From an uncultured Chloroflexia bacterium (lineage in GTDB: Bacteria; Chloroflexota; Limnocylindria; Limnocylindrales; CSP1-4): 64,000 nucleotides of DNA. Below, in pieces: positions 3,676-51,528 of this stretch. The translations under genes were made by a program, and so were the position numbers. Where the stretch lies: assembly GCA_963810065.1 (NCBI GenBank), contig CAWELX010000007.1, positions 1,170,154-1,234,153 on the forward strand, in the 5' to 3' direction. Each line of letters opens with the position of its first letter. Position 1 is the stretch's first letter. The notes beneath the pieces were generated by a model. It was not told where the DNA came from and searched no databases. It saw nothing but the letters and a program-made list of their open reading frames with translations.

Positions 3676-4328
3676 GGTCGAAGGCCTCCCGGCTCCTGGC
3701 GGCGCTCAGGCGCCGGGGGTGGTGTCGTCGGTGACGGGCGCATCGGCGGGCGGCGGTTCCGCGGTGGCCAGGTCCAGGGCGAGCTCGGGCCTGGCCGGTT
3801 GCGTCATCGGTTCGGCGGGAGCGACGGTGTCGGCCGGGGCGACCCTCGGCACGACAGCGGCGGCGACGGGCGCCACCACTCCGGCCGCCCCAGCCGCTTC
3901 GTCCGGCGGCGCTCCAGCCCCCGCGGCTCCGTCGTCGGGCAGCGCCGCGGCGATCTCGCCGATCCGCGAGCGCAGGTCGGCGGTCGCGGTCTCGAGCTCG
4001 CGGGCCGCCAGCCGGACGGCTCGGCCGACCTCCCGCAGGACGGGCTCCCACTCCGTGGCGGCCCGATCGACTTCCGGGCGCGCCTCGTCGCGGATGCGCT
4101 CGATCAGCGCGCGGCCCTCTGTCGAGGACGCGAACAGCGCACCGGCGGCACCGGCGGCGGCGCCCATCACGAACCCCACGATCTCGCGCACCGCGCTTCC
4201 TCCACGCTCGTCGGTCTCGACGGGCGCTCGGCGCGCCCGACGGCAAGGATCGCATCCACGCGGTCGTCGTGCACCGCCCGCGGCGGCGGCTGCCGCGGCC
4301 CGCGCAGGGGGTCGGCGGCCTGGCCGCG

Positions 4329-5680
4329 TCAGGCCGGCGCGGCGCCGCGGAGCGCGTCGATCTCGAGAATCGCCCCGGCCGCGCGGAGGCGATCGCGGAG
4401 CGCTGCCGGATCCAGGGCGCGGGGCTCGCGCCCTCGTTCGGCAGCCATCGCGGCGGCCGTGCCGGCGGCCTGGCCCATCGCCATGCACTGGGCCATGGAG
4501 CGGACCGAGGCGTGGGCGTCGTGCGTGGCCGAGAAGCAGCGGCCGGCGACCAGGAGGTTGACGGCATCGCGAACCAGCAGCGTCCGGTACGGGATGCCGA
4601 CCGCCTGGCCGTCGGGAAGGTAGTCCCAGCGCGGTGTCCGCACCCTCGTGATGGTCCTCGATCGGGGCGCCGCACAACCCGACCTGGTCGTCGAACTGGC
4701 GCGCGCCCAGGACGTCCTCCCGGGTGAGCCTGTAGTCCCCGTGGACGCGGCGGGTCTCGCGGACGCCGATCTGGCTGGACAACGTTGCGAGGGCCGCGCG
4801 CTCGTAGCCGGGCACGCGGTCCACGAGGAAGCGCACGTACTCCAGGGCCTGCCGACGCCCCTCCATCTCGCGGCGCGAGAGGAGCTCGGGATCCGTCGCG
4901 TTGACGACGCGTCCCTCGCGCGCCTCGAAGGAGGGAAGGCGGGTCATGACCGTCGCCGTCATCCCCTCCACCGGGGTCGCGTGGTCGGACCCCTCCAGGC
5001 GCGGGAGGTCGTAGGCGCCGGAAGCGGCGGCCTGCGCCATCAGCCCGTGGAGCTTGTCGTTCGAGACCTCCAGGCGCCGGTTCCGGTCGACGTTGACGAG
5101 CTTGAAGGTTGTCGTGAGCGTTTGCGCCGGGGCCAGCTCGCCGGCCTGCTCGTAGCCGAACCCGCCGAAGGCGCACAGATCGGCGTCGCCCGAGGCATCC
5201 ACGAACACCCGCCCGGCCACCAGCACGAGACCCGCCTTCGTGGCCACCACGACCTCGGTGACGCGCCCGTCGCAGACGACGACGTCCGCCAGGAAGGCGT
5301 GGAGCAGGACCCGCACCCCGGCGGCGACCACGAGCTCCTCCCAGGCGACCTTCAGGTGCTCCGGGTGATAGGTGATCCCGGTCCCGGCGCCGTACGTGTT
5401 GGGGCGCTCGACCACGCGGCCCCAGGCGGCGCAGGCTCGCGACCACGTCATCCGGGATGCCGCCGACGATCTTCCGCGGTGCGCTCCCCGGCGTAGAGAA
5501 CCCATAGAAGGTGTCCAGGACGGCGGTGCTCGTGCCGCCCAGGAAGCCGTTCTTCTCGATCAGCACGACCGACGCGCCCGTGCGGGCCGCGGCGATCGCG
5601 GCCGTCGAGCCGGCCGATCCCGAGCCCACGACCACGACATCGGCCGAGGCGGCGAGCGGGTAGGCGCGTGAGGCCTTCAT
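4329..5680 (-). pseudogene. FAD-dependent oxidoreductase (GIDA/FixC-like dinucleotide-binding fold) interrupted by two single-base frameshifts
   Basis: The N-terminus MKASRAYPLAASADVVVVGSGSAGSTAAIAAARTGASVVLIEKNGFLGGT (GxGxxG FAD fold) lies in the frame of ORF 3086..6160. After ..VASLRRLG the protein continues in the frame of ORF 3706..5505 (VVERPNTYGAGTGITYHPEHLK ... VFVDASGDADL ... CGAPIEDHHEGADT). It then continues in the frame of ORF 4329..4643 (RWDYLPDGQAVGIPYRTLLVRDAVNLLVAGRCFSATHDAHASVRSMAQCMAMGQAAG). The shifts are at ~5440 (GGGG run) and ~4640. The start ATG overlaps the SDR stop (ATGA at 5677-5680). Confidence 0.6.
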
Positions 5681-6486
5681 CACGATGGCGAGACCTGCGT
5701 CACGGACCACCCGCCGTCGACCAAGAGGAGCTGGCCGGTCACGTGGCGTGACTCCCCGGAGAGCAGGTAGACGGCGGCGGCCGCGACGTCCTCGGACGCC
5801 AGGAAGGCGCCGGCGAGCGGCTGCTTGCGCCGCGCGAAGGCGGCCGTGGCCGGATCCTCCGCGGCGCGCGCGGACATGGGCGTCGCGACCAGCGACGGTG
5901 CCACGACGTTCACGCGGATCCCGTGCGGCGCGTAGTACGCCGCCATGGTCGTGCCGAGGGCCGCGATCGCCCCCTTGGCCGCGGCATACGCGTGCGTGGC
6001 GAAGAGCTCCGGCACCGGGTGGGAAGCCAGGACGCTGCCCATCAGGAGCAGCGCTCCGCGGCTCCCGTCGGCGTCGGGCTCCTGGTCCAGCATCCGGCGC
6101 AGCACGGCCCGCGCTGCCAGCACCTGGGTGGTGAGGTTCAGGGCGAGGGTGCGGTCCCACGCGTCGCGGGTCAGCTCATGAACCGGTCCGTCGCCGAAGC
6201 GGCGGCCGGAGCCACCTGCGACCGCGAAGAGCCCATCGAGGCGCCCGAACCGGGCAGCCGCGGCCTTCACGGCCGCCTCCACCTGTGCTTCGTCGGTCAG
6301 CTCGGCCGGCAGGCAGGCGGCCTCGCCGCCAGATGCGGTGATGTCGTCCACCAGCGCAGCGCAGTGCTCGGCCGTTCGCGATGTCACGAAGACGCGCCCA
6401 CCCTCCGCGGCGAACCGGCGTGCCGCGGTCGCGGCCATCCCGGTCGAGCCCGTCACGAGGATGGTGCGGCCCGCCATGCGGTTCAT
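5680..6486 (-). CDS. Short-chain dehydrogenase/reductase (SDR) family oxidoreductase
   Basis: The real start is MNRMAGRTILVTGSTGMAATAARR (a TGxxxGxG Rossmann fold) at 6486..6484, and the protein reads YAAAKGA (catalytic YxxxK). The upstream 144 codons of the track ORF are a low-complexity artefact. The stop overlaps the downstream FAD-oxidoreductase start. Confidence 0.8.
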   Translation of the reverse strand: MNRMAGRTILVTGSTGMAATAARRFAAEGGRVFVTSRTAEHCAALVDDITASGGEAACLPAELTDEAQVEAAVKAAAARFGRLDGLFAVAGGSGRRFGDGPVHELTRDAWDRTLALNLTTQVLAARAVLRRMLDQEPDADGSRGALLLMGSVLASHPVPELFATHAYAAAKGAIAALGTTMAAYYAPHGIRVNVVAPSLVATPMSARAAEDPATAAFARRKQPLAGAFLASEDVAAAAVYLLSGESRHVTGQLLLVDGGWSVTQVSPS

Positions 6487-7614: not shown

Positions 7615-8362
7615 TCAGCCCCCGGCGGCGTCGGCCGGTGTGGGCGAGCGAAGCTCCAGCGGTCCAGGGCCGGTGGCCGGGGCGCGGCCCCGACGCTCGC
7701 GGCGGGCCATGACGGACTCGGCGATCCGGTAGACCGTGAGGAAGACGACGACGGTGGTCGCCGCGACGTACACCCACCAGGCCCACGGCGTGGAGGTGTC
7801 GGTGCCGCTCAGGATGCCGTGTGCCGTGGTGAAGGCAAAGGCCAGGAACGTGACGTAGTGGAGAAGGCGCCAGGAGCGCTGGCCGATGCGCCGGCGCAGG
7901 TGGAAGCTGGCGTACACGATCGCCACCAGGTAGATGGCCAGCTGGCCGAGGCCCACCCAGACCGGGCGGTAGGGCGACGCGAACGGGACGACCATCTCGG
8001 CGAAGCTGAAGGGCACCGTTGCATCGAGCCCCAGGAGCACCACGTGGACGCCGGCCAGGCCGAGACCGATCGCCGACAGGTCCTGGTGGAGGGCGAACGT
8101 CACGGGCCGGTGGGCGATCGGCGTCGAGGATCTTCGTGGACAGGAGGAGCCCGTAGATCACGGAGCCGGCGATGGCGAAGTAGGACAGGAACGCGGTGAT
8201 CCGGGTCGCCACCCACGGCAGCCGCTCGGGCGCGCTGCCGGCGAGCCGGACCAGGCCGTCCACGGCGAAGGGCAGCGTCGTCCCCAGCACGATCCCGACG
8301 GCGATGGCGAAGAGCCCCCACCGGACCAGGCTCGTGCGCGAGGAGAGTCCGCGGTACGTCAC
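7615..8362 (-). CDS. Ferric-reductase-like transmembrane (heme-binding) domain protein, apparently frameshifted
   Basis: The N-terminal part (frame of ORF 7559..8362) reads VTYRGL..LFAIAVGIVLGTTLPFAVDGL..ITAFLSYFAIAGSVIYGLLLSTKILDADRP. The continuation (frame of ORF 7615..8103) reads VTFALHQDLSAIGLGLAGVHVVLLGLDATVPFS..IYLVAIVYASFHLRRR..LLHYVTFLAFAFTTAHGIL, with the paired His of the FRD fold. The shift is at ~8080. The GTG start overlaps the apbE stop. Confidence 0.5.
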
Positions 8363-9367
8363 GCGAGGAACCTCGACGTGCGGGGCAGGGCGACGGTCCG
8401 GCCGTCGGCCAGGAGAGCGATCGCCCCCAGGGCAGGGCTCCGCTCGACGAGGTCAAGCCCGGTGGCCGCACCGAGGATCACGATCGCCTTGGCATATGCC
8501 TCGGCCTCGCGGGCCGACCCGGCGACCACCGTGGCCTGGACGACGTCGGATCGCGCCGGAGCGCCCGTCGCCGGGTCGATGAGGTGGTGGCGCCCCTCGT
8601 CCGCCCCGCCCCACCGATGGATGCTCGTGCCCGACGTGGCAACGCCGTAGGTCCGGCCGCCGAACGGTCCCCCGGGGAGCACCAGGACCGCCAGGAGGGA
8701 TGCGTCGTCACGGGGGTCGCCGACGCCGATCTCCCACGACTCGCCGGCGATGACGCGCACGGCGACGTCCCCGTCGGCGTCGACGAGGGCGCCGGCCCAG
8801 CGGAGGCCCGCGAGCGCCCGATCGGCCAGCCAGCCCTTGCCCACGCCGTCGAGATCGAGGCGAACGCCGGGCTCCCGGTCCACGACCCCGGAGCGGTGCC
8901 GGCCGCCGCCCCGGACGTCCCACGGTCGCGCGGCCGCATCGCCGACCCCGAGCGTCGAGGCGTGGGCGGTCGCTCCGGCAGATCCCGCGGGACCTTCCTC
9001 GGCGCGCAGGCGTGCGTCGAGGAGCGACACGTCGACCGCCCCGCCGGTGATCTCGCCCGCCTCGCAGCGCCCAGCGGAGCGCCGCGGCGAGCGTCGGGCC
9101 GACCGGTACCTCGGACCGCGGGTCGGCGTTGAGGAGCATGAGCCGGGACGCCGGGTCGTGCCGGGTGAGCATCGCGGCCCAGGCCCGGACGCGTGCCGCC
9201 ACGCGCCGCATCTCACGCTCGACGGCAGGTGCGTCCCCAGCAGGCGCGGTGACGTGGATCTCGAGGCGACCCCCCATGGCCTGCGCCCGGTGCACGAGAC
9301 GCGAGGCGGTGTCGATCGTGTCCACGTCGGCGGCAGGACCGGCCGGCAGGGCGACGGATCCGATCAC
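8359..9367 (-). CDS. apbE: FAD:protein FMN transferase (ApbE family), apparently frameshifted once
   Basis: N-term MIGSVALPAGPAADVDTIDTASRLVHRAQAMGGRLEIHV...RLMLLNADPRSEVPVGPTLAAALRWA (frame of ORF 8708..9367). It then continues as GEITGGAVDVSLLDAR...RLDLDGVGKGWLADRAL...GSAREAEAYAKAIVILG (frame of ORF 8359..9216). These are the ApbE hallmark motifs. The shift is at ~9065. Confidence 0.65.
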
Positions 9368-12276: not shown

Positions 12277-12329
12277 GTGGGCGTGGCACATCCGCGGCGG
12301 GCGGGCACGCGAAACCCGGGGTAGCATGC

Positions 12330-12353
12330 AACCGACCGACCAGTCGGTCGGTT
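12330..12353. promoter_or_regulatory. Perfect 11-3-11 palindrome AACCGACCGAC-CAG-GTCGGTCGGTT, a candidate TetR operator, immediately downstream of a TAGCAT (-10-like, 12321-12326) element
   Basis: Direct reading. It sits 43 bp upstream of the TetR-domain gene start at 12396, the classic autoregulatory position for TetR-family repressors. Confidence 0.6.
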
Positions 12354-12395
12354 TTCGGGCGCGACGCCCGACACAGGAGCCAGGCCGGCCCAGAG

Positions 12396-14540
12396 ATGAC
12401 GACGGACAAGCAGACGCCGCCGGACAGGCGCACGACGGCCCAGGCCGAGAAGAGCCGCACGCGCCGCGAGCAGATCCTCGACGCCGCCTTCAACACGTTC
12501 GCCCGGCGCGGCTACCGCGACACGGCGGTCGACGACATCGCCGCCGCCGCCGACACGTCCAAGGGCGGGGTCTACTTCCACTTCGCCACCAAGGAGGCGA
12601 TCTTCCGGGAGCTCATGCGCTCCACGGCGGATCGCCTGGCGGCGAAGGTGGACCGCGCCGTGGCGGCCGAGACCGACCCGATCGCGAAGGCCGAGGCGGC
12701 GCTCCACGCCGTCCTGGCGACGTTCGCCGGGCACCGCACGATGGCGCGCCTGCTCTTCCTGGACGCGCTGGGCGCCGGCCGCGCGTTCAACGCCGAGACA
12801 AACGAGCTGCATGACCGCTTCGCGCGGCTCATCGCGGGCTACCTCGACGAGGCGGTGGCCGACGGCTCCATCCCGCCGATCGACACGGCGATCACCGGCG
12901 TCGCCTGGTTCGGCGCCCTGAACGAGGTCGTCGCGCGCTGGCTGCTGGCCGAAGACCCGGGGCTCCTGGAGGACGCCTACCCGACGCTCCGCGACCTGCT
13001 CCTCCGCAGCGTCGGGGTCCCCGAGGCGCGGATCGGCGCCGGCTTCGGACCGCGGCGGATCGGCGGGATCGGCGCGATGACGGTGATCGACCGGCCCGAC
13101 CTCGCCGCCGGCGAGGCGGACCTCGCCGCGGCGATCCGGGCGACGGGCGAGTCCCTCCCGGGGCGGCTGCGCGTGGCCACCCTCGCGGTCGCCGACCTGG
13201 ATCCGCTCGCCCTCTTCGCCGCGGCTCGCGAGGCCGACCTCGAGGCGGCGCTCTGGCTCCAGCCGGTCGAAGGGTTCGCGCTCGTGGCGATCGGTCGAGC
13301 GTGGGCCGTGGAGGCCGAGGGGCCCGACCGGTTCGCGACGGCCGCGCGCGCCTGGGCCGAGGTGCTGGAGGAGGCGACCCTGGGTGGCCTCGCCGGCGCC
13401 CCCGGCGGCCTCGCGGCCCTGCCCCGTGGCGCGGGGCCCGTGCTGCTCGGCGGGCTCGGCTTCGGCGGGGGCGTGCCCGCCGCCGGCGGACCGTGGGCGC
13501 CGTTCGGGGCGTCCTCGCTGGTGCTGCCTGCCCTGGCCTTCGCCCGCACCGGGTCCGGGACGTTCGTGACGGCCGCCCTGGCCGGCGACGAGCCAACCCA
13601 GCCGCGGGTCCTGGCCCGGCACTGGGACACGCTGGCGGCACGCGCCCTCGAGCTTGCCCCGGCCCCGGGTGCCCTGGTCGCCCGGCCGGCCGGCGCCCCC
13701 CTCGTGGTCACCGGCGAGCAGCCGGACCGCCTGCACTGGGACCGGCTTGTCGGCCTCTTCGCCGGGGCCGTCGGCCGGGGCCGGCTCGACAAGGTGGTGC
13801 TCGCCCGCCAGGTCGGCATCCGCTCGCCCCTGGAGCTGGACCCGCTCAACGCCCTGCGTCGACTGGCGGCCGCGGGTCCCGAGAGCACGACCTTCGCCTT
13901 CGTCCGGGGCGGCGTCACGTTCCTGGGGGCAACGCCCGAGCGTCTCGCACGGACCGAGGGAAGGGCCTTCCGCACCGTCGCAATCGCCGGCTCCGCGCCG
14001 CGGGGCGTCGACGCCGACGACGATGCCCGGCTGGCCGCAGGCCTCCTCGCCAGCGACAAGGATCGCGAGGAGCACGCCGTGGTCGTGGCCATGCTCCGCG
14101 ATTCGCTCGGTCCCATCGTGGAGCGGCTCGACGTGGCCCCGGAGCCCGGAATCCTGGCGCTGCGCCACGTCCAGCACCTCGTCACCCCCATGGAGGGGCT
14201 GCTCCGCGAGGAGACCGGGATCCTTGCCCTGGCCGAGCGACTCCATCCGACTCCGGCCGTCGGCGGCGAGCCCCGCGGAGCCGCGCTGGACCTCATCGCC
14301 GAGCACGAGGGCTTCGACCGGGGTTGGTATGCCGGCCCCGTCGGCTGGCTGGGGGCCGACGGTGACGGTGAGCTCATGGTCGCGCTGCGCTGCGGGCTGG
14401 TCGACGGGCAGCGGGCGACGCTCTTCGCCGGCTGCGGCATCGTGGCCGACTCCGATCCAGCCCGCGAGTGGGAGGAGTCCCGGATCAAGCTGCGTCCCGT
14501 CGCCTCGGCCCTGGGGCGCCTGGAGGACGGTGAGGCGTGA
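12396..14540 (+). CDS. menF: TetR-family DNA-binding domain (aa 1-~205) fused in-frame to isochorismate synthase MenF (aa ~228-714)
   Basis: Single 714-aa ORF. The N-terminus has a TetR HTH (RREQILDAAFNTFARRGYRDTAVDDIAAAADTSKGGVYFHFATKEAIF) plus the TetR C-domain. After the linker RIGAGFGPRRIGGIGA comes MTVIDRPDLAAGE... with chorismate-binding hallmarks (..TFAFVRGGVTFLGATPERL..., ..MVALRCGLVDGQRATLFAGCGIVADSDPAREWEE). There is no stop codon between the two modules in this sequence. Confidence 0.75.
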   Translation: MTTDKQTPPDRRTTAQAEKSRTRREQILDAAFNTFARRGYRDTAVDDIAAAADTSKGGVYFHFATKEAIFRELMRSTADRLAAKVDRAVAAETDPIAKAEAALHAVLATFAGHRTMARLLFLDALGAGRAFNAETNELHDRFARLIAGYLDEAVADGSIPPIDTAITGVAWFGALNEVVARWLLAEDPGLLEDAYPTLRDLLLRSVGVPEARIGAGFGPRRIGGIGAMTVIDRPDLAAGEADLAAAIRATGESLPGRLRVATLAVADLDPLALFAAAREADLEAALWLQPVEGFALVAIGRAWAVEAEGPDRFATAARAWAEVLEEATLGGLAGAPGGLAALPRGAGPVLLGGLGFGGGVPAAGGPWAPFGASSLVLPALAFARTGSGTFVTAALAGDEPTQPRVLARHWDTLAARALELAPAPGALVARPAGAPLVVTGEQPDRLHWDRLVGLFAGAVGRGRLDKVVLARQVGIRSPLELDPLNALRRLAAAGPESTTFAFVRGGVTFLGATPERLARTEGRAFRTVAIAGSAPRGVDADDDARLAAGLLASDKDREEHAVVVAMLRDSLGPIVERLDVAPEPGILALRHVQHLVTPMEGLLREETGILALAERLHPTPAVGGEPRGAALDLIAEHEGFDRGWYAGPVGWLGADGDGELMVALRCGLVDGQRATLFAGCGIVADSDPAREWEESRIKLRPVASALGRLEDGEA

Positions 14541-16465
14541 CCGACACGACGGCGCTGCGCGGCTTCGTGGACGAGCTGGTCCAGGCCGGGATCGCCGACG
14601 CGATCGTCTGCCCCGGCTCCCGGTCGACGCCGCTCGCGCTGGCCCTGCGCGCCCATCCCGGGGTCCGGGTGCGCGTCCTCCTCGATGAGCGGAGCGCCGG
14701 CTTCTTGGCGCTGGGGATGGCGAAGGCCGCCCGGCGGCCGGTGGCCGTCCTCACCACGTCGGGCACGGCGGCCGCCAACCTCCTGCCGTCCGTGGTCGAG
14801 GCGTCGCTGGGGCGGGTCCCGCTCGTGGTCCTGACCGCGGACCGGCCGGCGGAGCTGCGCGATCGCGGCGCCCCCCAGGCGATCGACCAGGTCCGCCTCT
14901 TCGGCGCCCACGCGAAGTGGTTCGCGGAGCTGCCGCTCCTCGACGGCGATGACGCCACGCGACGCCACGTTCGGAGCGTTGCGGCGCGCGCCGTGGCTAC
15001 CGCGACGGCAGGCCCGGCCGGCCCCGTCCATCTCAACCTGCCGTTCCGTGAGCCGCTCGTGCCGCGCGGGCCGCTGGGCCCGCTGCCCGGGGAGCCGGCG
15101 AGCGTGGTGCTCACCGGGAGGCGCACGCTCGGCGCCGAAGTGGTCACGGACCTGGCGCTTCGCCTCCGCGCCGTGGAGCGTGGCCTGATCGTGGCGGGTC
15201 CCCAGGACGATCCGGCGCTCCCCGCGGCGCTCGCTCATCTCGCCGCGGTCCTGGGCTGGCCGATCCTGGCGGATCCGCTCTCGCTGGCGCGCTGCGGACC
15301 GCACGACCGGTCCCGGGTGCTGGCACGCGGCGATCAGCTGCTCCGGCCTGGGCCATGGCGCGACGCGCACGTGCCCGCGCTGGTCGTGCGCTTCGGGGCG
15401 ATGCCGACCTCCAAGCCCGTGCTCGTCCTGCTCGAGGAGCACCGCCCGGACCTCGTCGTCGTCGACGGAGACGGGGGCTGGCGCGAGCCCGCGATCGTGC
15501 CGGCGATGATGGTCCACGCCGATGCCACGGCCACCGCCCTGGCGCTCGCCGACGCCGTCGCCGCCGACCAGCAATTCGAGGCAGGCACCGACGCTCGACG
15601 CGCAACTGCCGACGCTCGACGCCCGACTGGCACCGTCGAGAGCCGTTCGGGCGACAGCCCGCGACGAGCCCCGCCGGCTCGCACCAGCCGCTGGCTGGAG
15701 GGCTGGCTGGCTGCGGACCGCACCGCGGATCGGGCGCTCCGTGGGTGGCTCACCGGCGTGACGGAGGCCGGCGTCACGTTCGAGGGCGCGCCGTTCGCCC
15801 TCCTCGCCGACCTCCTCCCCGACGGTGCGATCCTGTGGGCCGGCAGCTCGATGCCGGTGCGTGACATGGACGGCTGGCTCCCCGGGGGTTCGCGGGCGAT
15901 CAGGCCTCTGGCCAACCGCGGCGCGAACGGGATCGACGGCGTGATCTCGTCAGCGCTCGGCGCCGCCGCCACCGGTGCACCGGTGGCGCTCGTGATCGGG
16001 GACGTGGCATTCCTTCACGACCTCGGCGGCCTCGTGGCGGCACGCCTGCACGGCCTGGCGGCGACGATCGTCGTCATCGCCAACGACGGCGGCGGGATCT
16101 TCTCCTTCCTGCCGCAGGCCGCGGCGGTCGCGCCGGAGGTGGGTCTTCCGGCCCACTACGAGGAGCTCTTCGGGACGCCCCACGGCATCGACCTCGGTCC
16201 CCTGGTCGTCGCGCTCGGGGCGGAGCATCGGATCGTGGGACCGGCCGAGCTGGGCTCCGCGCTGGAGGCGTCCCTCGGCGCCCCGGGTGTCCGCGTGCTG
16301 GAGCTCCGCAGCGACCGCGCCCGCAACCTCGAGCTCCACCGCGAGGCGGCGGGCGTTGTCCGGGCCGCCCTCGCCGAGCTGCCGGACGCCGAGCTGCGGG
16401 ATGGCGACCTGCCGGACGCCGGGCCACCGGACGCCGGCGGCGCCGGCGCGGAGCGGATCCCATGA
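14537..16465 (+). CDS. menD: 2-succinyl-5-enolpyruvyl-6-hydroxy-3-cyclohexene-1-carboxylate (SEPHCHC) synthase MenD, ThDP-dependent
   Basis: [37 protein letters not shown]... (ThDP pyrimidine-binding N-domain), ..[40 protein letters not shown] (ThDP-binding GDG...N motif). It holds an Arg-rich insert with a 21-bp direct repeat at ~15590-15640. The start overlaps the menF stop. Confidence 0.85.
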
Positions 16466-17361
16466 GCGAGCGCCTGCGCCTCCGGGTCGACGGCATGCCG
16501 TGGACGGTGCGGGTTGCGGGGCGGGGCCAGCCCGTCCTGTTCCTGCACGGCTTCTCGGGGAGCGGCCTCGCATGGGCGGGGATCGCGGGGCTCGGCAGCC
16601 GGTTCCGCGCGATCGTGCCGGACCTGCCCGGGCACGGCGGCACGGGCTGGCAGACGGAGGCGGTGCCGGCGGCCGCGGATGCGAAGGCGGCGTCGGACGA
16701 CGGGACTCCGTCCGGTGCGCCGGTGGCCGCCGACGATCGGCCCCGCGCGTCGGTGGAGCGCACCGCGGCGGACCTCGCCACGATCGTGCGGCGCCTCGGC
16801 GCCGAGCGCGTGGACGTCGTCGGCTACTCCCTGGGCGCCCGCATCGCGCTGCGCCTCGCCGTGGACCGTCCGGAGATCGTTCGACGACTGGTCCTGGAGG
16901 CGCCGTCCGCGGGGATCGCCGATCCGGCGGCCCGCGCCGAGCGGATGGCGGCCGACGCGGCCCGGGCGCGGGTTGTCGTGGCCGAGGGGATCGACGCGTT
17001 CGTCGCCCGCTGGGAGTCGGAGCCGGTCCTGGCAGGGGAGGCCGCGCTCGCCCCGGCCGTGCGCCGCCGCCAGACGGCGATTCGGCGCGCCAACGAGCCG
17101 CTGGGCCTCGCGGCGTCGCTCGTGTACGCCGGCCAGGGCGCCATGGAGCCGGTCCACCCGCGCCTCGCCGCGGTGTCGGCGCCGACGCTCGTCGTCATCG
17201 GCGACACCGATCCCGCCCGGGCGCGCGCCGAGGAGGTCGCCGCGGGCATCCCCGGGGCGCGCCTGGCCCTCGTCGCCGGCGCCGGCCACGCTCCGCACCT
17301 CGAACGTCCCGACCGCTTCCACTCCCTCGTCCTGGACTTCCTCACGGAGACCGCCGCATGA
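16462..17361 (+). CDS. menH: Alpha/beta-hydrolase, probable SHCHC synthase MenH
   Basis: [10 protein letters not shown] ... [11 protein letters not shown] (GxSxG nucleophile elbow) ... [11 protein letters not shown]. Its position between menD and menB fits menH. ATGA overlaps on both sides. Confidence 0.7.
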
Positions 17362-18206
17362 CCACGCCCGACCCCGCCCCGTCGCCCGTCGCCTGGACGC
17401 CCGTCCGCGAGTACCGCGACATCCGCTACGAGCACTCCGGCACCGGGATCGCAAAGGTGACGATCGACCGCCCGGAGGTCCGCAACGCGTTCCGGCCGGA
17501 GACCGTGAAGGAGCTGATCGACGCGTTCGCCCGGATCCGCGACGACGCCACGATCGGCTGCGTCCTGCTGACGGGCGCGGGCGACAAGGCCTTCTGCTCG
17601 GGCGGCGACCAGAACTACAAGAGCCACGCCGGCGGCTACGTCGGCGAGGACGGCGTCGCCCGCCTCAACGTCCTCGACCTGCAGCGCCAGATCCGCTCGC
17701 TGCCGGTCCCGGTCATCGCCCTGGTCAACGGCTACGCGATCGGCGGCGGCCACGTCCTCCACGTCGTCTGCGATCTCTCGATCGCCGGCGAGAACGCGAT
17801 CTTCGGGCAGGTCGGCCCGCGCGTGGGCTCCTTCGACGCGGGCTACGGGATCGGCCTCCTGGCGCGACTCGTCGGCGACAAGAAGGCCAAGGAGATCTGG
17901 TTCCTGTGCCGCCAGTACACGGCGGACGAGGCGGCCGCGATGGGCCTCGTCAACAAGGTCGTGCCGCCGGCGGAGCTCGAAGCCGAGGGTGTCGCCTGGG
18001 CCGAGGAGATCCTGTCGATGAGCCCGACCGCGATCCGCTTCCTGAAGTCGGCGTTCCTCGTGGCCACCGACGGCCTGGCCGGGCTCCAGGAGTTCGCCGG
18101 CAACACGACCGGCCTGTACTACACCACCGACGAGGCGCACGAGGGGTCGCGCGCCTTCCTCGACAAGCGCCAGCCGGACTTCACGAAGTTCCCCCGTCGG
18201 CCGTGA
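17358..18206 (+). CDS. menB: 1,4-dihydroxy-2-naphthoyl-CoA synthase MenB (crotonase fold)
   Basis: ..[92 protein letters not shown] is a near-canonical MenB sequence. Confidence 0.9.
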
Positions 18207-19174
18207 TCGAGCCCATCCCGCCGCAGGTCACCTCGCCGCCCCCGCCGTCACGCCTGCGGGTGTGGCTCCTGGCGATCCGGCCCGCGACGCTCCCGGCGGC
18301 CGCATCGGGGGTCGTGGTCGGGATCGGCGCGGCGCTGGCGATCGGGACCCAGCTCCGACTCGACACGGCGCTCGGGTGCCTTGCCGTCGCCCTCCTGCTG
18401 CAGGTGCTGGCGAACCTTGCGAACGACCTCTCGGATTTCAGGAAGGGGGCCGACACGCCCGACCGCGCCGGCCCGACGCGGGTCGCGGCCGCCGGGCTCG
18501 TCTCGGAGCGCCAGCTGGAGCTGGCGATCGGGGTCGTGATCGGCCTGGCGGGCCTCGTCGGGCTCTGGCTGGTCGCCGTCGGCGGGCCGGTCCTGCTGGC
18601 ACTCGGCGCCCTCGCGATCATCGCCGCCCTGGCCTACACCGGCGGCCCCTTCCCGTACGGCTACCGGGCCCTTGGCGACGTGTTCGTCTTCATCTTCTTC
18701 GGGCTGGTGGCCGTGGTGGGCACGGCCTACCTCCAGGCGCTGCGGCTCAACCCGCTCTTCTTCGTCGCGGCGATCCCGGTGGGCGCGCTGACGACCGCCA
18801 TCCTGGTCGTCAACAACCTGCGCGACATCCCGACCGACACGGCAACCGGCAAGCGAACCCTCGCCGTCGTGCTCGGTCGCCGGCGCACCGCGCTCGAGTA
18901 CGCGCTCCTGCTGGGAGTTGCGTTCGCGGTGCCGGCAAGCCTGGCCGCGTTCGGGCTCGCGGCGGGCGGCGGCTTCCCGGCCCTTGCCCAGGGGCTCCCG
19001 CTGCTCACCCTGCCGCTGGCAATCCCGCTGCTGCGGACGGTCCGCGACTTCGAGGCGCCCCGCGAGCTCAACGCCGCGCTCAAGGGGACCGCCCGCCTGG
19101 CGCTCTGGTTCGGGCTCCTGTTTGCGCTGGGGCTCGCCCTCGTCGGGCTCCGTCCGGGCGGGGGCCCGGCATGA
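18203..19174 (+). CDS. menA: 1,4-dihydroxy-2-naphthoate polyprenyltransferase MenA (UbiA superfamily)
   Basis: The GTG start overlaps the menB stop (GTGA). It is multi-TM, with the UbiA Asp-rich motif [11 protein letters not shown] and a second motif [19 protein letters not shown]. Confidence 0.85.
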
Positions 19175-20340: not shown

Positions 20341-22598
20341 GCCCGGCGCTGGTCCTCCCGCTCGCGCTCCGGCGCCACGCTGCCGCGCGCCCCACGGACC
20401 TCGCGATCCGCGATGCCGGGGGCGACACTTCGTACGCCGGCCTCGACCAGTCCCTGGATCGGGTGGCGTCCGCCCTGCAGGCCTCGGGTATCGCCCCCGG
20501 TGACCGGGTGGCCCTGCTCGCGCCGCCATCGGCCGGGTCGCTGGCGCTCCTGCTCGGCATCCTGCGGATGGGCGGCATCGCCGTCCCGCTCGGGATGCGC
20601 CTCACGCGCCGCGAGATCGGGGAGTCGCTGGCAGCAGCATCGCCGGCGCTGATCGTCCACGACGCGGCGTTCAACGGCATCGCCACCGGCCACGGCGTGC
20701 CGGGCGTCGCTCCGGCCGACCTCGTCGAACGCGGCCGCGGGGTGGTGCCGGGCGAAGCCGACATCGGCCCGGCCGCGCCCGCCGTGGCCGTGCTCACGTC
20801 CGGGACCACCGGGCGGCCGAAGGCGGCGCTCCTGTCGCACGTGGCCCTGGCCGCGAGCGCGGAGGCGTGGACGGCCGCGCTGCCGGCCGCGACGGGGTGG
20901 CTCCTGTGCCTCGCGATGTCGCACGTCGCCGGACTCGGGGTGGCATGGCGGGCGCTGGGCGCCGGCAGGCCGCTCCACGTCGCGACCGGCTTCGAGGCGG
21001 GCAGCGTGCTCGACGACCTGCGCGGCCCGGGGGCGCCGAGCCACCTCTCCCTCGTCCCGGTCCAGCTGGCGCGCCTGCTCGACGCCGCGGGCGGAGGGCC
21101 GCCGCCCCGGACGCTGCGCGCGGTGCTCCTGGGGGGTGCGCCGATCCCGCCGGCCCTCGTGCTCCGTGCCGCCGCGGCCGGATGGCCGGTCGTGCCGAGC
21201 TACGGGCTGACGGAGGCCGGCTCCGGGGTGACCGCGCTGCCAGCCGACGAAGCCGCGGCCACGCCCGACTCAGCCGGGCGGGCGCTCCGCGGCGTCGCGG
21301 TCCGGATCGCCGAGCCGGGTCCCGACGGGGTGGGGGAGATCCAGGTCCGCACCCCGGCCGCCTTCTCCGGGTACCTGGGGCGCCAGGATCTGTCCGCGGC
21401 GGCCTTCACGCCCGACGGCTGGCTGCGCACGGGCGACGCGGGCCGCCTCGACGTGGTCGGCCGGCTGTTCGTCGCCGACCGGCGCGCCGACCTCGTCGTC
21501 GCGGGCGGCGAGAACGTCCTGCCGGCCGAGGTGGAGGCTGTCCTGGAGAGCCATCCGGCCGTCGCGGAGGCCGGCGTGGCCGGCCGCCCGGACCCGACGT
21601 GGGGCGCCGTCCCGGTGGCCGGGCTCGTGCTGCGCCCGGGGGCCGTCGAGCCCTCCGATGACGAGCTCCGCGCCTGGTGCCGTGAGCGCCTGGCGTCGTA
21701 CAAGGTCCCGGCCGCGTTCCTGCGCCTCGACGAGCTCCCCCGCACCGCCTCCGGCAAGCTCCGCCGAGGCGAGCTTCGCGACCGCCTCACGCCGCTCGTG
21801 GTCGTGCTGCACGCCACCCTCTCGACGGGCCGCCAGCTGGCCCCGCTCGTGCGTGAGCTGGCGGCAGGCGGGGACCTACGCGTCGTGGCCCCGGACCGCC
21901 GGGGGAGCGGCGAGCATCGCCTGGAGCCGCCACGCGCCGTCTCGATGGACGAGCACGTGGTGGACCTGGAGGGGCTCCTCGACGCGGAGGGTGTCGGTCG
22001 CGCCGTCGTGCTCGGCCACAGCTTCGGGGGCGTCGTGGCCCTCGAGGCGGCGGCCAGGCTGCCGGAACGCATCGCGGGCGTGGTCGCCTACGAGCCGCCA
22101 TACGGGCCGCTCGCCGACGCCCGCACGCAGCGAGCCTTCGCGCTGGTCGCGCGGGCGACCGCTGATGCCGCGGCGCGCGCAGGGGCGCCCGCCGCGGCAC
22201 GCGCCTTCATGCGCGGCGTTGGGGGCCGGGGAGCGTGGGAGACCCTGCCGGAGCGCAGCCGGACGTTCCTCGAGGAGGAGGGTGGGGGAGCCGTCGCGGA
22301 CGCAGGCATGGCCGGCCTCGACCCGTCGGCGCTGGCCGGCATCGCCTGCCCGGTCACCATCCTCACGGGCAGTGCCTCGGATCCTTTCTATGCCCCGATC
22401 GCGGACGCCCTTGCCGCCCGGATCCCCGGCGCCCGCCGGGCCGTCCTGGCGGGGCTGCGCCACACCGCGCCGATCACCGAGCCGTCGCCCGTCGCGGTGG
22501 CCCTGCGCGAGGCGCTGGTGGCCGGACAGGCGCCCGGCCTGGGAACCCCGACCCCATCTCGACCGCCGGCCGCCGCCCCTCCAGGAGAGCCCGCATGA
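20337..22598 (+). CDS. menE: o-succinylbenzoate--CoA ligase MenE (aa 1-~485) fused to a C-terminal alpha/beta-hydrolase domain (aa ~490-753)
   Basis: The adenylation domain has AMP-binding motifs LTSGTTGRPKAALLSH, ..PSYGLTEAG.., ..RTGDAGRLD.., ..YKVPAAFLRLDELPRTASGKLRR. With no intervening stop it continues as LVVVLHATLSTGRQL...VVLGHSFGGVVALEAAARLPERIAGVVAYEPPYGP... (GHSFGG nucleophile elbow). Confidence 0.75.
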   Translation: MSPALVLPLALRRHAAARPTDLAIRDAGGDTSYAGLDQSLDRVASALQASGIAPGDRVALLAPPSAGSLALLLGILRMGGIAVPLGMRLTRREIGESLAAASPALIVHDAAFNGIATGHGVPGVAPADLVERGRGVVPGEADIGPAAPAVAVLTSGTTGRPKAALLSHVALAASAEAWTAALPAATGWLLCLAMSHVAGLGVAWRALGAGRPLHVATGFEAGSVLDDLRGPGAPSHLSLVPVQLARLLDAAGGGPPPRTLRAVLLGGAPIPPALVLRAAAAGWPVVPSYGLTEAGSGVTALPADEAAATPDSAGRALRGVAVRIAEPGPDGVGEIQVRTPAAFSGYLGRQDLSAAAFTPDGWLRTGDAGRLDVVGRLFVADRRADLVVAGGENVLPAEVEAVLESHPAVAEAGVAGRPDPTWGAVPVAGLVLRPGAVEPSDDELRAWCRERLASYKVPAAFLRLDELPRTASGKLRRGELRDRLTPLVVVLHATLSTGRQLAPLVRELAAGGDLRVVAPDRRGSGEHRLEPPRAVSMDEHVVDLEGLLDAEGVGRAVVLGHSFGGVVALEAAARLPERIAGVVAYEPPYGPLADARTQRAFALVARATADAAARAGAPAAARAFMRGVGGRGAWETLPERSRTFLEEEGGGAVADAGMAGLDPSALAGIACPVTILTGSASDPFYAPIADALAARIPGARRAVLAGLRHTAPITEPSPVAVALREALVAGQAPGLGTPTPSRPPAAAPPGEPA

Positions 22599-26365: not shown

Positions 26366-26945
26366 TCAGTGGACGTACCCGTTGCGACGCGGGCACAGGT
26401 GGCCGGTGGGGTCCAGGGGCTGACCGCACAGCGGGCACGGCAGCCGGCCCGCCGCGACCGTGCGCAGGGCCCGTTCGACGAACGCCCGGGCGCGTGCCGG
26501 CGTCAGGCGGATGCGGACGAGGTCCGGCCCGTCGGGATCGTCGTCCTCGAGCTCGAGATCCACGTCGGGCTCCTCGCCCTCCTCTTCGTCGTCCTCCACC
26601 TCGAGCTGCGCCCGGGCCTCGACGACGATCTCGTCGCTGTCGCCGTCCCAGGCCAGCGTCATCGTGCCGACGCGGAACGCCTCGACGAGCGGCTCGTCGA
26701 GGGACCCGGTGTCGTCGTCGCCCGGCAGCGAGGGCCTCCGGGACGTTGACGCCCCGTCGCGAGAGCTCGGCGAGGAGGAGCGCCATCCGTTCGGCCAGCA
26801 CCTGCACCTGGACCTTCTCCAGCACGACCGAGACGAGCGCGCTGCCGCGCCGTGCCTGGAGGAAGAAGGTCCGGTTGCCCGGCTGGCCGACGGTGCCGCT
26901 GACGAACCGGTCCGGGAGGCCGAAGTCGTAGATGCGTCGAGACAT
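26366..26945 (-). CDS. DUF3090 (SCO1663-like) protein, apparently frameshifted once
   Basis: N-term MSRRIYDFGLPDRFVSGTVGQPGNRTFFLQARRGSALVSVVLEKVQVQVLAERMALLLAELSRRGVNVPEALAAG (frame of ORF 26295..26945). The C-term is in the frame of ORF 26366..27250: ..DDDTGSLDEPLVEAFRVGTMTLAWDGDSDEIVVEA...RLPCPLCGQPLDPTGHLCPRRNGY (the DUF3090 Cys cluster). The shift is at ~26735 in a G/C run. Confidence 0.6.
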
Positions 26946-48696: not shown

Positions 48697-50100
48697 ATGA
48701 GCGACCAGAGCAGGTTGCTGCTGAGCCGGCGCCAGGTGCTCAAGTACGGCGGGCTCACCGCCGCGGCCACGGCCGCGGCGGCCCTGGGCCCCGGCTGGTG
48801 GGGACCATCCTCCAGCCGGGCCGGGCCCTCGCCGTGGATCGTCCCCCGGACCTCAAGCTCGTCGGGACCGACGGCTGGATCTAGCTGCCAGGCCCCCAGA
48901 TCAACTCCAGCGCCTACGGCGTGGTCCACCCGGACAGCTATGCGCCCGCCGGGCGCACCGACTACATCTTCGGGTTCGCGAACGGGACGGGCGTCCCGGA
49001 CCGGGACCTGCACCTGCTCAAGAACAAGGCCCAGCACTCTGCCCCGATGTTCTGGGCCAAGGAGGGCGAGGAGTTCCGGGTCCAGCTGACGAACGTCGGC
49101 CTGGCCCAGCGCCCCGACCTGTTCGACGCCCACACCGTCCACTGGCACGGCTTCAAGAACGTCATCCCGTTCTTCGACGGCGAGCCGACCGGCTCGGTGT
49201 CGGTGCCGCAGGGCCAGACGTTCACCTACGTCTACAAGTCCCACGACCCGGGCACCTACATGTTCCACTGCCACGTCGAGGACGTGGAGCACGTGCACAT
49301 GGGGATGACCGGCCTGGTGTTCGTCCGGCCGGCCCAGGATCACGAAGGGAACACCGCCGGAGCGCCGTCTCCTGGTACGGAGCGAACCGCGCTTCCAGGA
49401 GCCATCGAGCCTCCGGGCATACCGCTCGGCTAGCCTACAACGACAGCGTCGGCCGATCATCCGGCGTCGACGGGCTTCGACCGCGAGTACGGGATGTTCC
49501 TCAGCGAGCTCTGGGCGGAGGCCCACTGGGCCGACGCCCACATCCAGCTTCCGGAGTGGAGCGACTACCACGCCGACTACGCGCTGCTCAACGGCCGGGT
49601 CTGTCCCGACACGCTCGCACCGAACGGGGGCTCGATCGACCCCTTCAACGTCGCTCGGAACGGCGACAAGACGCTGGTCGCGCCGGCCGGGCACCCGGAA
49701 CTCGGGAGCCAGCCGATCTCGTCGCTCGTGACCTGCAACGCGGCGAACGTGTCCTCCTGCGGTTCGCGAACCTCGGCTTCAAGGAGGCCGCGATGACTCT
49801 CACCGGCATCAAGCTGCGGGTCGTCGGGCGCGACGCCACGCTTCCTGCGCGGGCGCGATGCGGTGGACCTGACCTACTCTCGTCGAGACGAACACGCTGG
49901 CATTCGGCGCCGGCGAGAGCTTCGACGCGATCTTCACCGCGCCCGCCCACAGCGGCGCCGGCCCGGGCGGGTCCGACACGTACGTCCTCTACAACCGGAC
50001 GTACATCCGCGCCGACAACACGGGCGGCGGCGGCGGACAGCGCACCGAGGTGCGCGTCTACGCACCGGGCACCGTCCCGCCCAGGTACCCGAACGGCTGA
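48697..50100 (+). pseudogene. Multicopper oxidase (cupredoxin) gene 1, degraded: Tat-type signal, several frameshifts, one in-frame TAG
   Basis: MSDQSRLLLSRRQVLKYGGLTAAATAAAALG (twin-Arg signal), then the frame is lost. ..DLKLVGTDGWI-TAG-LPGPQINSSAYGVVHPDSYAPAGRTDYIFGF...HTVHWHGF...PGTYMFHCHVEDVEHVHMGMTGLVFVRP (Cu-site His motifs). Later real-looking segments (FDREYGMFLSELW..., ERVLLRFANLGFKEAAMTLTGIKLRVVGRDATLP, ..AFGAGESFDAIFTAPAHSGAGPGGSDTYVLYNRTYIRADN...) sit in three different frames. Confidence 0.5.
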
Positions 50101-50129
50101 GACGGCGGCTGAGGAACGGAGTGATCACG

Positions 50130-51492
50130 ATGCTGCGATTCACGCCACCGCGCACCCGCGCCTGGCTCTCCCTCGCCGGCCTCGTCCGCGCTCGTCTCCG
50201 GCGTCCTGTCGCCGCCGCCGCCCGGCCGACGTCGGCCGCGACGCAGGGGATCAACAGGGCCGGCATCGCCTGCACCACGAGCACCGGCACCAACCCGACG
50301 TTCACCCTCACGACCAGCGGGGCTACATCAACCTGCCGGACGGCACCACCGCCTACATGTGGGGGTTCTCGGAGGGCAGCGGGCCTTCCAGCACCCGGGC
50401 CCCGTCCTCTGCGTCAACGAGGGCGACACCGTCACGATCGTCCTGAAGAACGCCCTCACGAACGCGCCGAAGAGCGCGCCGGCCGTCTCCTGATCTTCCC
50501 CGGCCAGGTGGACGTCACTGCCGACGGCGCGCCGTCGCAGCCGGACTTCGACGGAGCCGGCGCGCACCTCGCTCGCCACGGCGGCGCAGCCGAGCGGCGG
50601 CACGGTGACGTACAGCTTCGTCGCCGCGCAGCCCGGGACCTTCCTCTACGAGAGCGGCGGCGGGGGCGAGCGGCGGACTCGACTCGAGCCCGCAGATCCA
50701 GGTCCGGATGGGCCTCTTCGGCGCCCTCATCGTGCGCCCGGCCTCGGCGCGAAGTTCGCCTACGACCGGGCCGACTCGCGGTTCAACCCGGACACCGAGT
50801 TCCTCGCCCTGCTGTCCGAGATCGACCCGTACCTCAACGCGGCGGTCCTCAAGGGCAAGACGTTCAACTTCAACACCTACCACCCGCGCTACTGGCTCAT
50901 CAACGGCCGCGGCTTCCCGGACAGCATCGCCGACAACTTCGCCGCCTGGCTGCCCAGCCAGCCGTACGGCTCCCTGGCGGCGATCCACCCGAACGACAAG
51001 TACCTCGCGGACGGGTCACCCGGACCCCAGCATCGACCCGCTGTCCTGTCCTGGGTGGGGACGGAGGACTACCCGTTCCATCCGCACGGCAACAACGGCA
51101 AGGTGATCGGGCGCGACGGAGCGGCCGCTCGCCGGGCCCGCCGGCCAGGACATGTCGTTCGACGAAGTTCGTCGTGAACATCGGACCGGGCCAGACCTGG
51201 GACGTCCTCTTCAGCTGGCGCGACGCCGAGGACTACTCGCCCGACGAACCCGGTCCCGGCGAGCGAGCCGAACCTGCAGGACCTCACGGTCGGGATGTTC
51301 TACGGCGGCAGCCCGTACCTGGGCGTCCAGGAGCCGATGCCGCCGGGGATCTCGACCCTCAACGAGTGCGGCGAGTTCTACATCATCGCCCACAACCACG
51401 CGCTGTACCAGATCACGTCCTGGGGCGTGAACATGACCGGGCCGATCACCTACACGCGGGTCGATCCGCCCCTGCCCAACAGCTGTCCGTGA
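50130..51492 (+). pseudogene. Multicopper oxidase gene 2, degraded by multiple frameshifts
   Basis: GAGGAACGGAG RBS + ATG at 50130 (MLRFTPPRTRAWLSLAGLVRA). Protein-like islands alternate between all three + frames: YINLPDGTTAYMWGFSEGSGPS; PVLCVNEGDTVTIVLKNALTN; VTYSFVAAQPGTFLYESGG; GLFGALIVRPA..KFAYDRADSRFNPDTEFLALLSEIDPYLNAAVLKGKTFNFNTYHPRYWLINGRGFPDSIADNF...YPFHPHGNNGKVIGRDG; KFVVNIGPGQTWDVLFSWRDAEDYSPDEPGPGE; MFYGGSPYLGVQEPMPPGISTLNECGEFYIIAHNHALYQITSWGVNMTGPITYTRVDPPLPNSCP. Confidence 0.5.
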
Positions 51493-51528
51493 TGAGAGGT
51501 AGGGGAACGACGATGATCCGGACGTACG

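Follow-up and report, generated by a model that had tools for sequence, protein, structure and literature searches.

PutA and BirA are bifunctional enzyme-repressors, in which one polypeptide joins a pathway enzyme to a DNA-binding domain for its own operon. A native fusion of a TetR-family regulator to the isochorismate synthase MenF would resemble them in this arrangement, although it differs from them in its folds and DNA-binding domain. Such fusions are found in several Chloroflexota lineages. They form a family of at least 50 protein clusters (90% identity) of 640-740 aa from Anaerolineae, Dehalococcoidia, and other Chloroflexota, with examples in an Anaerolineaceae bacterium (GBL36853.1, 674 aa) and in a Dehalococcoidia MAG (P0273, 662 aa). 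These proteins carry TetR_N, TetR_C, and Chorismate_bind in one chain and head menD/menH/menB.. operons, with a palindrome whose halves read ACYGACC and GGTCRGT just upstream of their genes. Public records name them merely "isochorismate synthase," and our literature search found no paper on TetR-isochorismate synthase fusions. An earlier reading of the locus described below predicted that a native fusion would count as novel. This claim needs qualifying, since the public databases already contain native fusions of TetR to MenF from other Chloroflexota.

The locus that we compared with these systems lies in a 64,000-nucleotide stretch of DNA from an uncultured Chloroflexota bacterium; we refer to the whole of this stretch as the window. 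As assembled, a single ORF of 714 aa runs unbroken from 12396 to 14540 (+) through both modules with no internal stop, as had been noted previously. The N-terminal module is indeed a TetR-family regulator. Pfam places TetR_N (PF00440; E 5.6e-16, 58.5 bits, cutoff 24) at aa 27-73, which identifies a TetR-type HTH, and TetR_C_24 (PF17932; 31.5 bits, cutoff 26.4) at aa 93-182, which identifies the helical ligand/dimerisation domain; TetR structures in the PDB match aa 8-207. The second module contains Chorismate_bind (PF00425) at aa 447-698 (E 6e-74), and its score of 310.3 bits with the NCBIfam model TIGR00543 (cutoff, 224.75) assigns it to the isochorismate synthases. Stand-alone orthologues start at M228 (ATG 13077-13079, MTVIDRP), in agreement with the proposal of a complete MenF beginning at an internal Met. 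When MenF was aligned to EntC (5jxz), LDK(239) lay opposite VDK147 and GATPE lay opposite GASPE197. In this alignment, the Lys in ..LDKVVLAR and the Glu in ..GATPERL are the counterparts of EntC K147 and E197, which we take to be the general base and the general acid, respectively. The menaquinone context is confirmed by menD, menH, menB, and menA downstream. In the operon, which reads tetR-menF-menD-menH-menB-menA(-menC-menE-menG), menF is the first gene for an enzyme. The features of the locus are as follows.

12321..12326, + strand: -10-like hexamer TAGCAT, read in the sequence, directly 5' of the operator candidate; orthologues have TATAGT, TATCAT, or TAGGAT at the same place
12330..12353, no strand: 24-bp palindromic operator candidate, a perfect inverted repeat (11-2-11) with the core ACCGACC..GGTCGGT
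12396..13080, + strand: tetR/acrR-family regulator gene in its corrected reading, from Pfam TetR_N/TetR_C_24, identity to the stand-alone TetR P0395, and orthologue stops
13047..13076, + strand: repeat-containing tail where the frame leaves that of relatives, net +1 nt, from comparison with P0395, the related locus L009, and orthologue ends
13077..13080, + strand: ATGA stop/start overlap (menF ATG plus tetR TGA), kept in the window, from the sequence and orthologue junctions
13077..14540, + strand: menF, isochorismate synthase, 487 aa; TIGR00543 above cutoff, 95% identity over 487/487 aa to the stand-alone MenF P0387, EntC Lys/Glu matched
14537..16465, + strand: menD, SEPHCHC synthase, a TPP enzyme; Pfam TPP_enzyme_N/M_2/C, one-frame tblastn match to orthologous MenD
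16462..17361, + strand: menH-like alpha/beta hydrolase; Pfam Abhydrolase_1/6, position shared with orthologous operons
17358..18206, + strand: menB, ECH_1 family in the DHNA-CoA synthase position; Pfam ECH_1 (E 7e-73), ATGA overlap with menH
18203..19174, + strand: menA, UbiA prenyltransferase; Pfam UbiA, GTGA overlap with menB

The relatives of this locus have two genes where the window has one ORF. The 120 best homologues drawn from 5.8 billion proteins are all unfused chains of 448-519 aa, and each covers the part of the query that starts at M228. We found that tetR has its own stop in 51/51 related loci with both genes (3 metagenome contigs and 48 species-representative genomes of Limnocylindrales-type Chloroflexota). 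In all 28 of the orthologue junctions listed, tetR ends in a TGA that shares bases with the menF ATG or GTG (ATGA/GTGA), and gene calls give the same 4-nt overlap in L001-L003 and L092. The split pairs (for example, L001-L048; P0395/P0387, P0383/P0003) have genes 57-100% identical to those of the window and share with it the upstream RR-HK, the downstream menD-H-B-A, the operator candidate, the -10-like hexamer, and the ATGA/GTGA motif at the junction. However, their tetR ends at the overlapping TGA, whereas in the window tetR is shifted by +1 and its frame continues into menF. One 9.1-kb contig from JGI sample 3300075153 reads RR-HK-TetR(236)-MenF(487, 4-nt overlap)-MenD-H-B-A. P0395, a stand-alone TetR of 236 aa from this sample, is 100% identical to aa 1-218 of the window protein and then reads SAGSERSAGAVGSARTAR before its stop, and the gene after it begins 4 nt before that stop. 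The MenF of this contig starts at the same Met as that of the window and is 95% identical to it. In a rough NJ tree, used only for the shallow placement of the window since its deep fused-versus-split branching is unreliable, the window MenF lies deep within the split clade, adjoining P0001, rather than with fused members. Thus, independent assemblies of the same or the closest lineages do not reproduce the continuity, and the ortholog comparison suggested in the original prediction did locate a stop between tetR and menF, as a TGA overlapping the menF start. The idea of a native repressor-enzyme fusion at this locus finds no support here and is almost certainly wrong.

The difference between the window and its relatives lies in the tetR tail. 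The ancestral tetR stop, TGA 13078-13080, is in frame only after net removal of one tail base; as assembled, the tetR frame misses it by one base, and the ATGA motif itself is present. The 34 nt from 13047 to 13080 read GGACCGCGGCGGATCGGCGGGATCGGCGCGATGA, which would give the junction peptide GFGPRRIGGIGAMTVIDR in the fused frame, and they include a tandem 9-nt repeat (GGATCGGCG, twice) at 13057-13074. The fused frame agrees with P0395 and L009 as far as ..RIGAGFG (codon 218, 13047-13049). The +1 frame of the tail reads ..GGSAGSAR followed by a stop, which resembles the orthologue ends GGSGR and AGSGR (each before a stop) and GSAR... The Gly/Arg linker described earlier (about aa 206-227) is the C-terminal tail of TetR in a Gly/Arg-rich reading. 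The window tail is 10 nt longer than orthologue tails of 60 nt. Compared with the conspecific TetR, where P0395 implies a tail of 60 nt, the change amounts to a net -26 nt within the repeat array and is no clean 1-nt indel. A tail-specific 20-mer, TTCGGACCGCGGCGGATCGG, had 13 matches in the metagenome collection, all of them chance matches and none homologous to the locus. We dropped a GC3/frame plot as a test of the tail's selected frame: the hand count of 13/14 in the fused frame against 7/10 in the +1 frame slightly favours the former in a 30-nt stretch too short to weigh, and the window-wide plot is noisy.

We consider it about 80% probable that the 714-aa ORF arose at the assembly level, by a surplus base that joined two adjacent genes. 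The two genes would be translationally coupled neighbours, a TetR/AcrR regulator with a true product of about 228-236 aa and a menF of 487 aa. A net one-base surplus in the Gly/Ser/Ala-coding 9-nt-repeat tail (13047-13076) would put tetR in the menF frame, and the TGA at 13078-13080 would then be read through. The surplus base would most likely be an error in the consensus or assembly of long metagenomic reads, and we infer that it is technical rather than biological. Elsewhere in the window, the FAD_oxidored gene lies in pieces in three frames and the DUF3090 gene in two, and the ferric reductase and ApbE genes are split at about 8119 and 9066, respectively. By frame arithmetic, at least five sites in four other window genes (about 4640, 5450, 8119, 9066, and 26725) are shifted, all by a net +1 as in the tetR tail, and DNA alignment shows that two of these five shifts are single-base insertions. 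That the same net shift recurs at this many sites points to assembly error. The fragmented multicopper-oxidase region (48.8-52.2 kb) was not counted as frameshift evidence, because its pieces are partly parted by in-frame stops.

Other records are in keeping with such an error. MFD MAGs, which make up most relatives, are Nanopore-only and Medaka-polished (PMC12313526), and the window itself is probably from a Nanopore MAG. L045 and the 99%-identical L018 differ by a frame-breaking 1-nt change within menF. P0231, on another high-GC contig, is a frameshift-garbled TetR..MenF ORF of 626 aa; thus, spurious TetR..MenF mergers do get called. An identical 714-aa protein has already been deposited as a product and comes from a single NCBI/ENA contig of 1.53 Mb, which fits the pattern of these MFD MAGs. 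The locus serves as a caution: alternative frames of high-GC long-read MAGs contain few stop codons, so that one indel at an ATGA gene junction is enough to create a convincing "fusion protein." Together, the split relatives and the other +1 shifts make the fallback offered in the original prediction, an indel artefact or a lost stop, the best-supported of its options.

It is unlikely that the continuity stems from a real, very recent mutation, in which a repeat-array change plus one base created a true 714-aa TetR-MenF, possibly alongside free MenF from M228. In its favour, the deposited sequence has no break in the ORF, the tail is a slippage-prone 9-nt repeat array in which L013 carries an in-frame duplication, the net -26 nt could be genuine strain variation, and the neighbouring RR, HK, menD, and menH genes have no frameshift. 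Moreover, native fusions, with linkers -3 to +39 aa relative to that of the window, indicate that the architecture works. Since they show that cells can live with a fused product, a real event becomes more likely a priori. However, slippage by 9-nt units preserves the frame, and the change seen here is +1 mod 3. It also goes the same way as the five other shifts that break genes in the window, which could not all be adaptive, and the conspecific contigs are split. Since the ATGA and the orthologue-like ..GSAR with its stop are intact in the +1 frame, any real event would have to be extremely recent. We are just as doubtful that a mutation of this kind secondarily re-created the architecture native to other Chloroflexota, with a bifunctional repressor-enzyme and a live one-base interconversion between the split and fused states.

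It is very improbable that the lineage has a conserved native fusion of the kind seen in the 640-740-aa proteins from Anaerolineae and Dehalococcoidia. The domain order is identical and the operator motif is homologous, but all relatives at 57-100% identity are split, and the window is nested in their clade with its stop/start overlap relic kept. In contrast, the native fusions are 39-46% identical to the window protein, fall in other clades of the NJ tree, are continuous on up to 12 independent contigs, and have no ATGA relic. Should the native fusion link occupancy of the enzyme to the binding of DNA, quinone biosynthesis would offer a new example of the enzyme-repressor logic of PutA and BirA; this idea is worth pursuing on the native fusions and not on the window protein. 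Programmed recoding, in which a ribosomal frameshift within the repeat tail would let TetR end at the TGA after all, is hardly credible, as nothing beyond the repetitive sequence suggests it, no slippery heptamer or stimulatory structure is apparent in the letters of the 34 nt at 13047-13080, the relatives have no need of it because their frame is direct, and unrelated genes carry five further shifts of +1, which favour error.

Apart from the probable merger of its first two genes, the tetR-menFDHBA(CE) operon is genuine and has a phylogenetically conserved operator candidate. A TetR regulator with such a candidate heads the menaquinone operon across many Chloroflexota, and our literature search found no TetR-type regulator of men genes. 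The perfect palindrome reported upstream is present at 12330-12353 and reads AACCGACCGAC CA GTCGGTCGGTT, although its spacing is 11-2-11 and not 11-3-11, the earlier string having carried one surplus G. It occurs once in the window, where shuffles predict 0 matches, and it is the sole strongly conserved intergenic element across more than 30 related species, with conserved copies upstream of tetR in more than 30 related loci. By this conservation it behaves as the putative operator it had been taken for. The TAGCAT element noted before is also in place. A consensus scan for sigma-70 promoters and terminators around the locus gave no match, with no full sigma-70 consensus, and we place the putative promoter solely by the conserved TAnnnT hexamer. 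Bound to the palindrome over this promoter, the regulator would keep its own operon repressed, and a ligand would release it. The best matches of the TetR part among solved structures (E 1e-14 to 1e-12, over the HTH and ligand domain) are FadR/YsiA-type and related regulators, namely 2ibd, 3vpr, 1vi0/3whb, Mce3R (9b7y), and DarR. As the closest of these are FadR/acyl-CoA-type TetRs, our guess is that the ligand may be a CoA-thioester or a quinone pathway product. The FadR ligand itself is not transferable, because the NCBIfam FadR(Bac) model gives 62.6 bits, far under its equivalog cutoff of 200; FadR-type regulators act in fatty-acid degradation, whereas the operon here is for menaquinone biosynthesis. 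Overlapping junctions recur farther along this operon: GTGA is read in the sequence at 14537 and 18203 and ATGA at 17358, and the ORF coordinates give a 4-nt overlap at 16462 as the fourth further junction of this kind.

The most plausible reading of the fusion in the window is a merger of two ordinary genes through a +1 indel that very probably arose in assembly. The uninterrupted frame that the original prediction described, from a TetR module into a complete isochorismate synthase (MenF), does hold in the sequence by ORF scan, Pfam and NCBIfam. The product scored 310 bits against the isochorismate-synthase subfamily model TIGR00543 (cutoff, 224.75), and in an alignment to EntC (5jxz) the MenF part kept a Lys and a Glu opposite K147 and E197, the general base and the general acid of EntC.

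Features of the tetR-menF locus (coordinates in the window)
12321-12326, upstream of the ORF: TAGCAT hexamer (sequence)
12330-12340 and 12343-12353, upstream of the ORF: arms of a perfect inverted repeat (sequence)
12396-14540, + strand: TetR-MenF ORF, 714 codons without interruption (sequence)
aa 27-73 of the 714-aa product: TetR_N (Pfam)
aa 93-182 of the 714-aa product: TetR_C_24 (Pfam)
aa 447-698 of the 714-aa product: Chorismate_bind (Pfam)

We compared the locus with its relatives. In a search of 5.8 billion proteins, the best 120 matches to the full ORF were all stand-alone isochorismate synthases (448 to 519 aa, at most 83% identity), with coverage starting at query M228. Three encoding contigs shared the layout RR-HK-TetR (218 to 240 aa)-MenF (482 to 484 aa)-MenD-MenH-MenB-MenA, where RR and HK are a response regulator and a histidine kinase, and on all three tetR ended 4 nt past the MenF start. 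Scanning a single genome for each GTDB species gave 75 loci. With the three contigs above, which are metagenomic, added, 51 loci carried both tetR and menF, most of them from Chloroflexota tagged Limnocylindrales or "uncultured Chloroflexia." When a script traced the TetR frame downstream, TetR had its own stop in 51 of 51, and in all 28 junctions read at the sequence level this was a TGA overlapping the MenF ATG or GTG (ATGA/GTGA); only in the window did the frame continue, for 1.4 kb. Thus, TetR has a separate stop in every orthologous locus compared, which contradicts a lineage-conserved native fusion.

The closest sequences are also split. The exact 714-aa product was recorded from one NCBI/ENA contig of 1.53 Mb, and its 90% cluster includes P0395, a 236-aa TetR from JGI metagenome 3300075153. 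P0395 is identical to window residues 1 to 218 (100%) and then reads SAGSERSAGAVGSARTAR to its stop; the following gene starts 4 nt ahead of that stop. A second 3300075153 contig has the order RR-HK-TetR (236 aa)-MenF (487 aa)-MenD-MenH-MenB-MenA, likewise with a 4-nt overlap, and its MenF (P0387, N terminus MTVVDRP) is 95% identical to the window MenF over all 487 residues. Therefore, organisms at the species or strain level carry two genes. In a rough neighbor-joining tree of the MenF domain, whose deep order is unreliable, the window MenF lay deep within the split clade, adjoining the split protein P0001, while fused forms were spread over several other deep branches.

The frame is lost in the 3' tail of tetR. 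The ATGA is kept at 13077-13080, and TetR enters it in the ATG frame, not the TGA frame. The fused frame matches relatives as far as RIGAGFG (codon 218). Read in the +1 frame, the tail ends in GGSAGSAR and a stop, resembling the orthologue ends GGSGR, AGSGR and GGAR. The window tail exceeds that of three orthologues by 10 bases (9 + 1), and it holds a tandem duplication of the 9-nt unit GGATCGGCG at 13057-13074. Compared with the 3300075153 organism(s) with split genes, the window tail is 26 nt shorter (-27 + 1). The P0395 tail has a period of 3 aa (GSA GSE RSA GAV GSA RTA R), which shows it to be built from an array of 9-nt repeats. Across the clade, the TetR tail is a hot spot of repeat change, with lengths of 45 to 81 nt, and one relative has an in-frame duplication there (VPEAQIR VPEAHIA; L013:3588-3663).

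The window has five further shifts, all of them net +1 by frame arithmetic on coordinates, like that in tetR. The FAD_oxidored (PF12831) gene at 3709-5662 (-) matches its profile as three segments, each in a different frame (positions 1-67, 83-331 and 335-416), which implies two net +1 frameshifts near ~5450 and ~4640. The DUF3090 gene at 26393-26930 (-) matches in two pieces (profile positions 1-67 and 71-170), with a net +1 break at ~26725. Against the orthologous JGI contig L092, the frame changes at ~8119 in a ferric-reductase-like gene (7630-8362, -) and at ~9066 in an ApbE gene (8362-9337, -), and nucleotide alignment shows one inserted window base at each. Six shifts in the same direction, with four of the broken genes unrelated and conserved, point to systematic consensus error and not natural mutation. 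We therefore put the probability that the extra base in tetR is a technical (assembly) artefact at about 0.8. This was the fallback of the original prediction, an in-frame artefact in an indel-rich window, and the five other shifts and the split relatives back it. A real recent mutation in the tail would fit the unshifted frames of the adjoining RR, HK, menD and menH genes and the slightly higher GC3 of the tail in the fused frame; however, the five shifts in the same direction elsewhere in the window make it improbable.

Most relatives in the genome scan were "MFD" MAGs, which are assembled from Nanopore reads alone and polished with Medaka (PMC12313526). To judge by its NCBI+ENA source and contig size, the window probably derives from an assembly of this type. 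Two of the MFD MAGs, L045 and L018, are 99% identical at the locus, and a one-base indel between them (at L045:3740-3750) breaks menF in one. Such one-base breaks in related long-read MAGs are consistent with residual indel errors of these assemblies. P0231, a garbled 626-aa TetR..MenF ORF from another high-GC contig, shows that spurious mergers do get called as proteins. L011 and L003 (menD start at 5780) likewise have single-base differences that break the frame of menF or menD.

The original prediction held that a native fusion would be novel; the architecture is already native in other Chloroflexota lineages.

Native TetR-MenF fusion family (sequence searches)
P0123-P0128 and P0271-P0313 (proteins), L093-L099 (loci; e.g., L096:4001-6025): at least 50 clusters, 640 to 740 aa

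When 1.84 billion cluster representatives were searched in full with HMMER, proteins of 659 to 690 aa aligned with query ~16 to 709 in one stretch (41 to 46% identity), and their sequences were clean TetR, linker and MenF. With one fused protein as the query, we found 48 fused clusters (PF00440, PF17932 and PF00425; 640 to 841 aa; identity down to 39%). BLAST against both halves of the window protein confirmed 50 fused proteins, whose linkers range from 3 aa shorter to 39 aa longer than the window's. Therefore, the architecture is native, but in other lineages: Dehalococcoidia, Anaerolineae/Anaerolineaceae and unclassified Chloroflexota (e.g., GBL36853.1). One fused cluster has 108 members and another 129, and identical proteins occur on up to 12 contigs. 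The fused genes lead operons with menD, menH, menB, menC, menE or menA. Database records call the proteins only "isochorismate synthase," and our full-text literature search found no description of TetR-MenF fusions or of a TetR regulator for men operons.

The predicted perfect palindrome is present upstream of tetR; its spacing was misjudged as 11-3-11, since the arms at 12330-12340 and 12343-12353 give 11-2-11. The 24-mer occurs once in the window, with 0 matches in 100 shuffles. Among 14 aligned upstream regions, the sole strongly conserved block is AAACCGACC(G/A)GTCGGTCGGTT, directly preceded by a TAnnnT hexamer, and a pattern search located the motif in more than 30 species loci, ~60 to 100 nt ahead of the TetR match. 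Upstream of fused genes lie palindromes of this kind (AAACCGACCAtcTGGTCGGTTT, ACCGACGCGTCGGT and ACTGACC(G/A)GTCAGT), with the general form ACYGACC-GGTCRGT, homologous to the window's. These comparisons indicate that the TetR regulator and candidate operator at the men operon are genuine. This conserved module and the native fusions elsewhere in Chloroflexota are worth carrying forward.

In the window, tetR is followed by menF, menD, menH, menB, menA, an MR_MLE (menC-like) gene, an AMP-binding (menE-like) ORF and a UbiE-type methyltransferase gene, and ATGA/GTGA overlaps join consecutive genes. Because TetR-family repressors generally behave in this way, the likeliest mechanism is that a TetR dimer on the palindrome over the promoter would repress tetR itself together with the men operon and would leave upon ligand binding, while menF translation would be coupled to tetR termination at the ATGA. 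The nearest solved structures, FadR/acyl-CoA-type and related TetRs, are too distant (E ~1e-13), and therefore their ligand specificity is not transferable. The menE-like ORF (20442-22598, +) encodes AMP-binding and AMP-binding_C domains and then a C-terminal Abhydrolase_6 (aa 453-685); this ORF may be natively fused or may be a further frameshift merger. MenD (14537-16465, +) has 642 aa, whereas most relatives have 601 to 605 aa and the near-conspecific contig has 633 aa; the additional residues fall in an Arg/Ala/Asp stretch of low complexity near aa 330-400 and in the C-terminal tail.

Elsewhere in the window, 48885-52125 (+) is a run of short ORFs with multicopper-oxidase motifs and Cu-oxidase_2/3 matches at both ends. 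In-frame stops and a single frame change separate the ORFs, GC is lower in this region, and its GC skew is strongly negative. The region may be either a decayed gene for a large secreted oxidase or further sequence errors. In the ORF at 56413-57936 (+), a long initial (TP)n repeat (PTPTPT.., ~30 copies) gives way to Ig-like (Big_13) sequence, and the opposite-frame ORFs there are by-products of the repeat.
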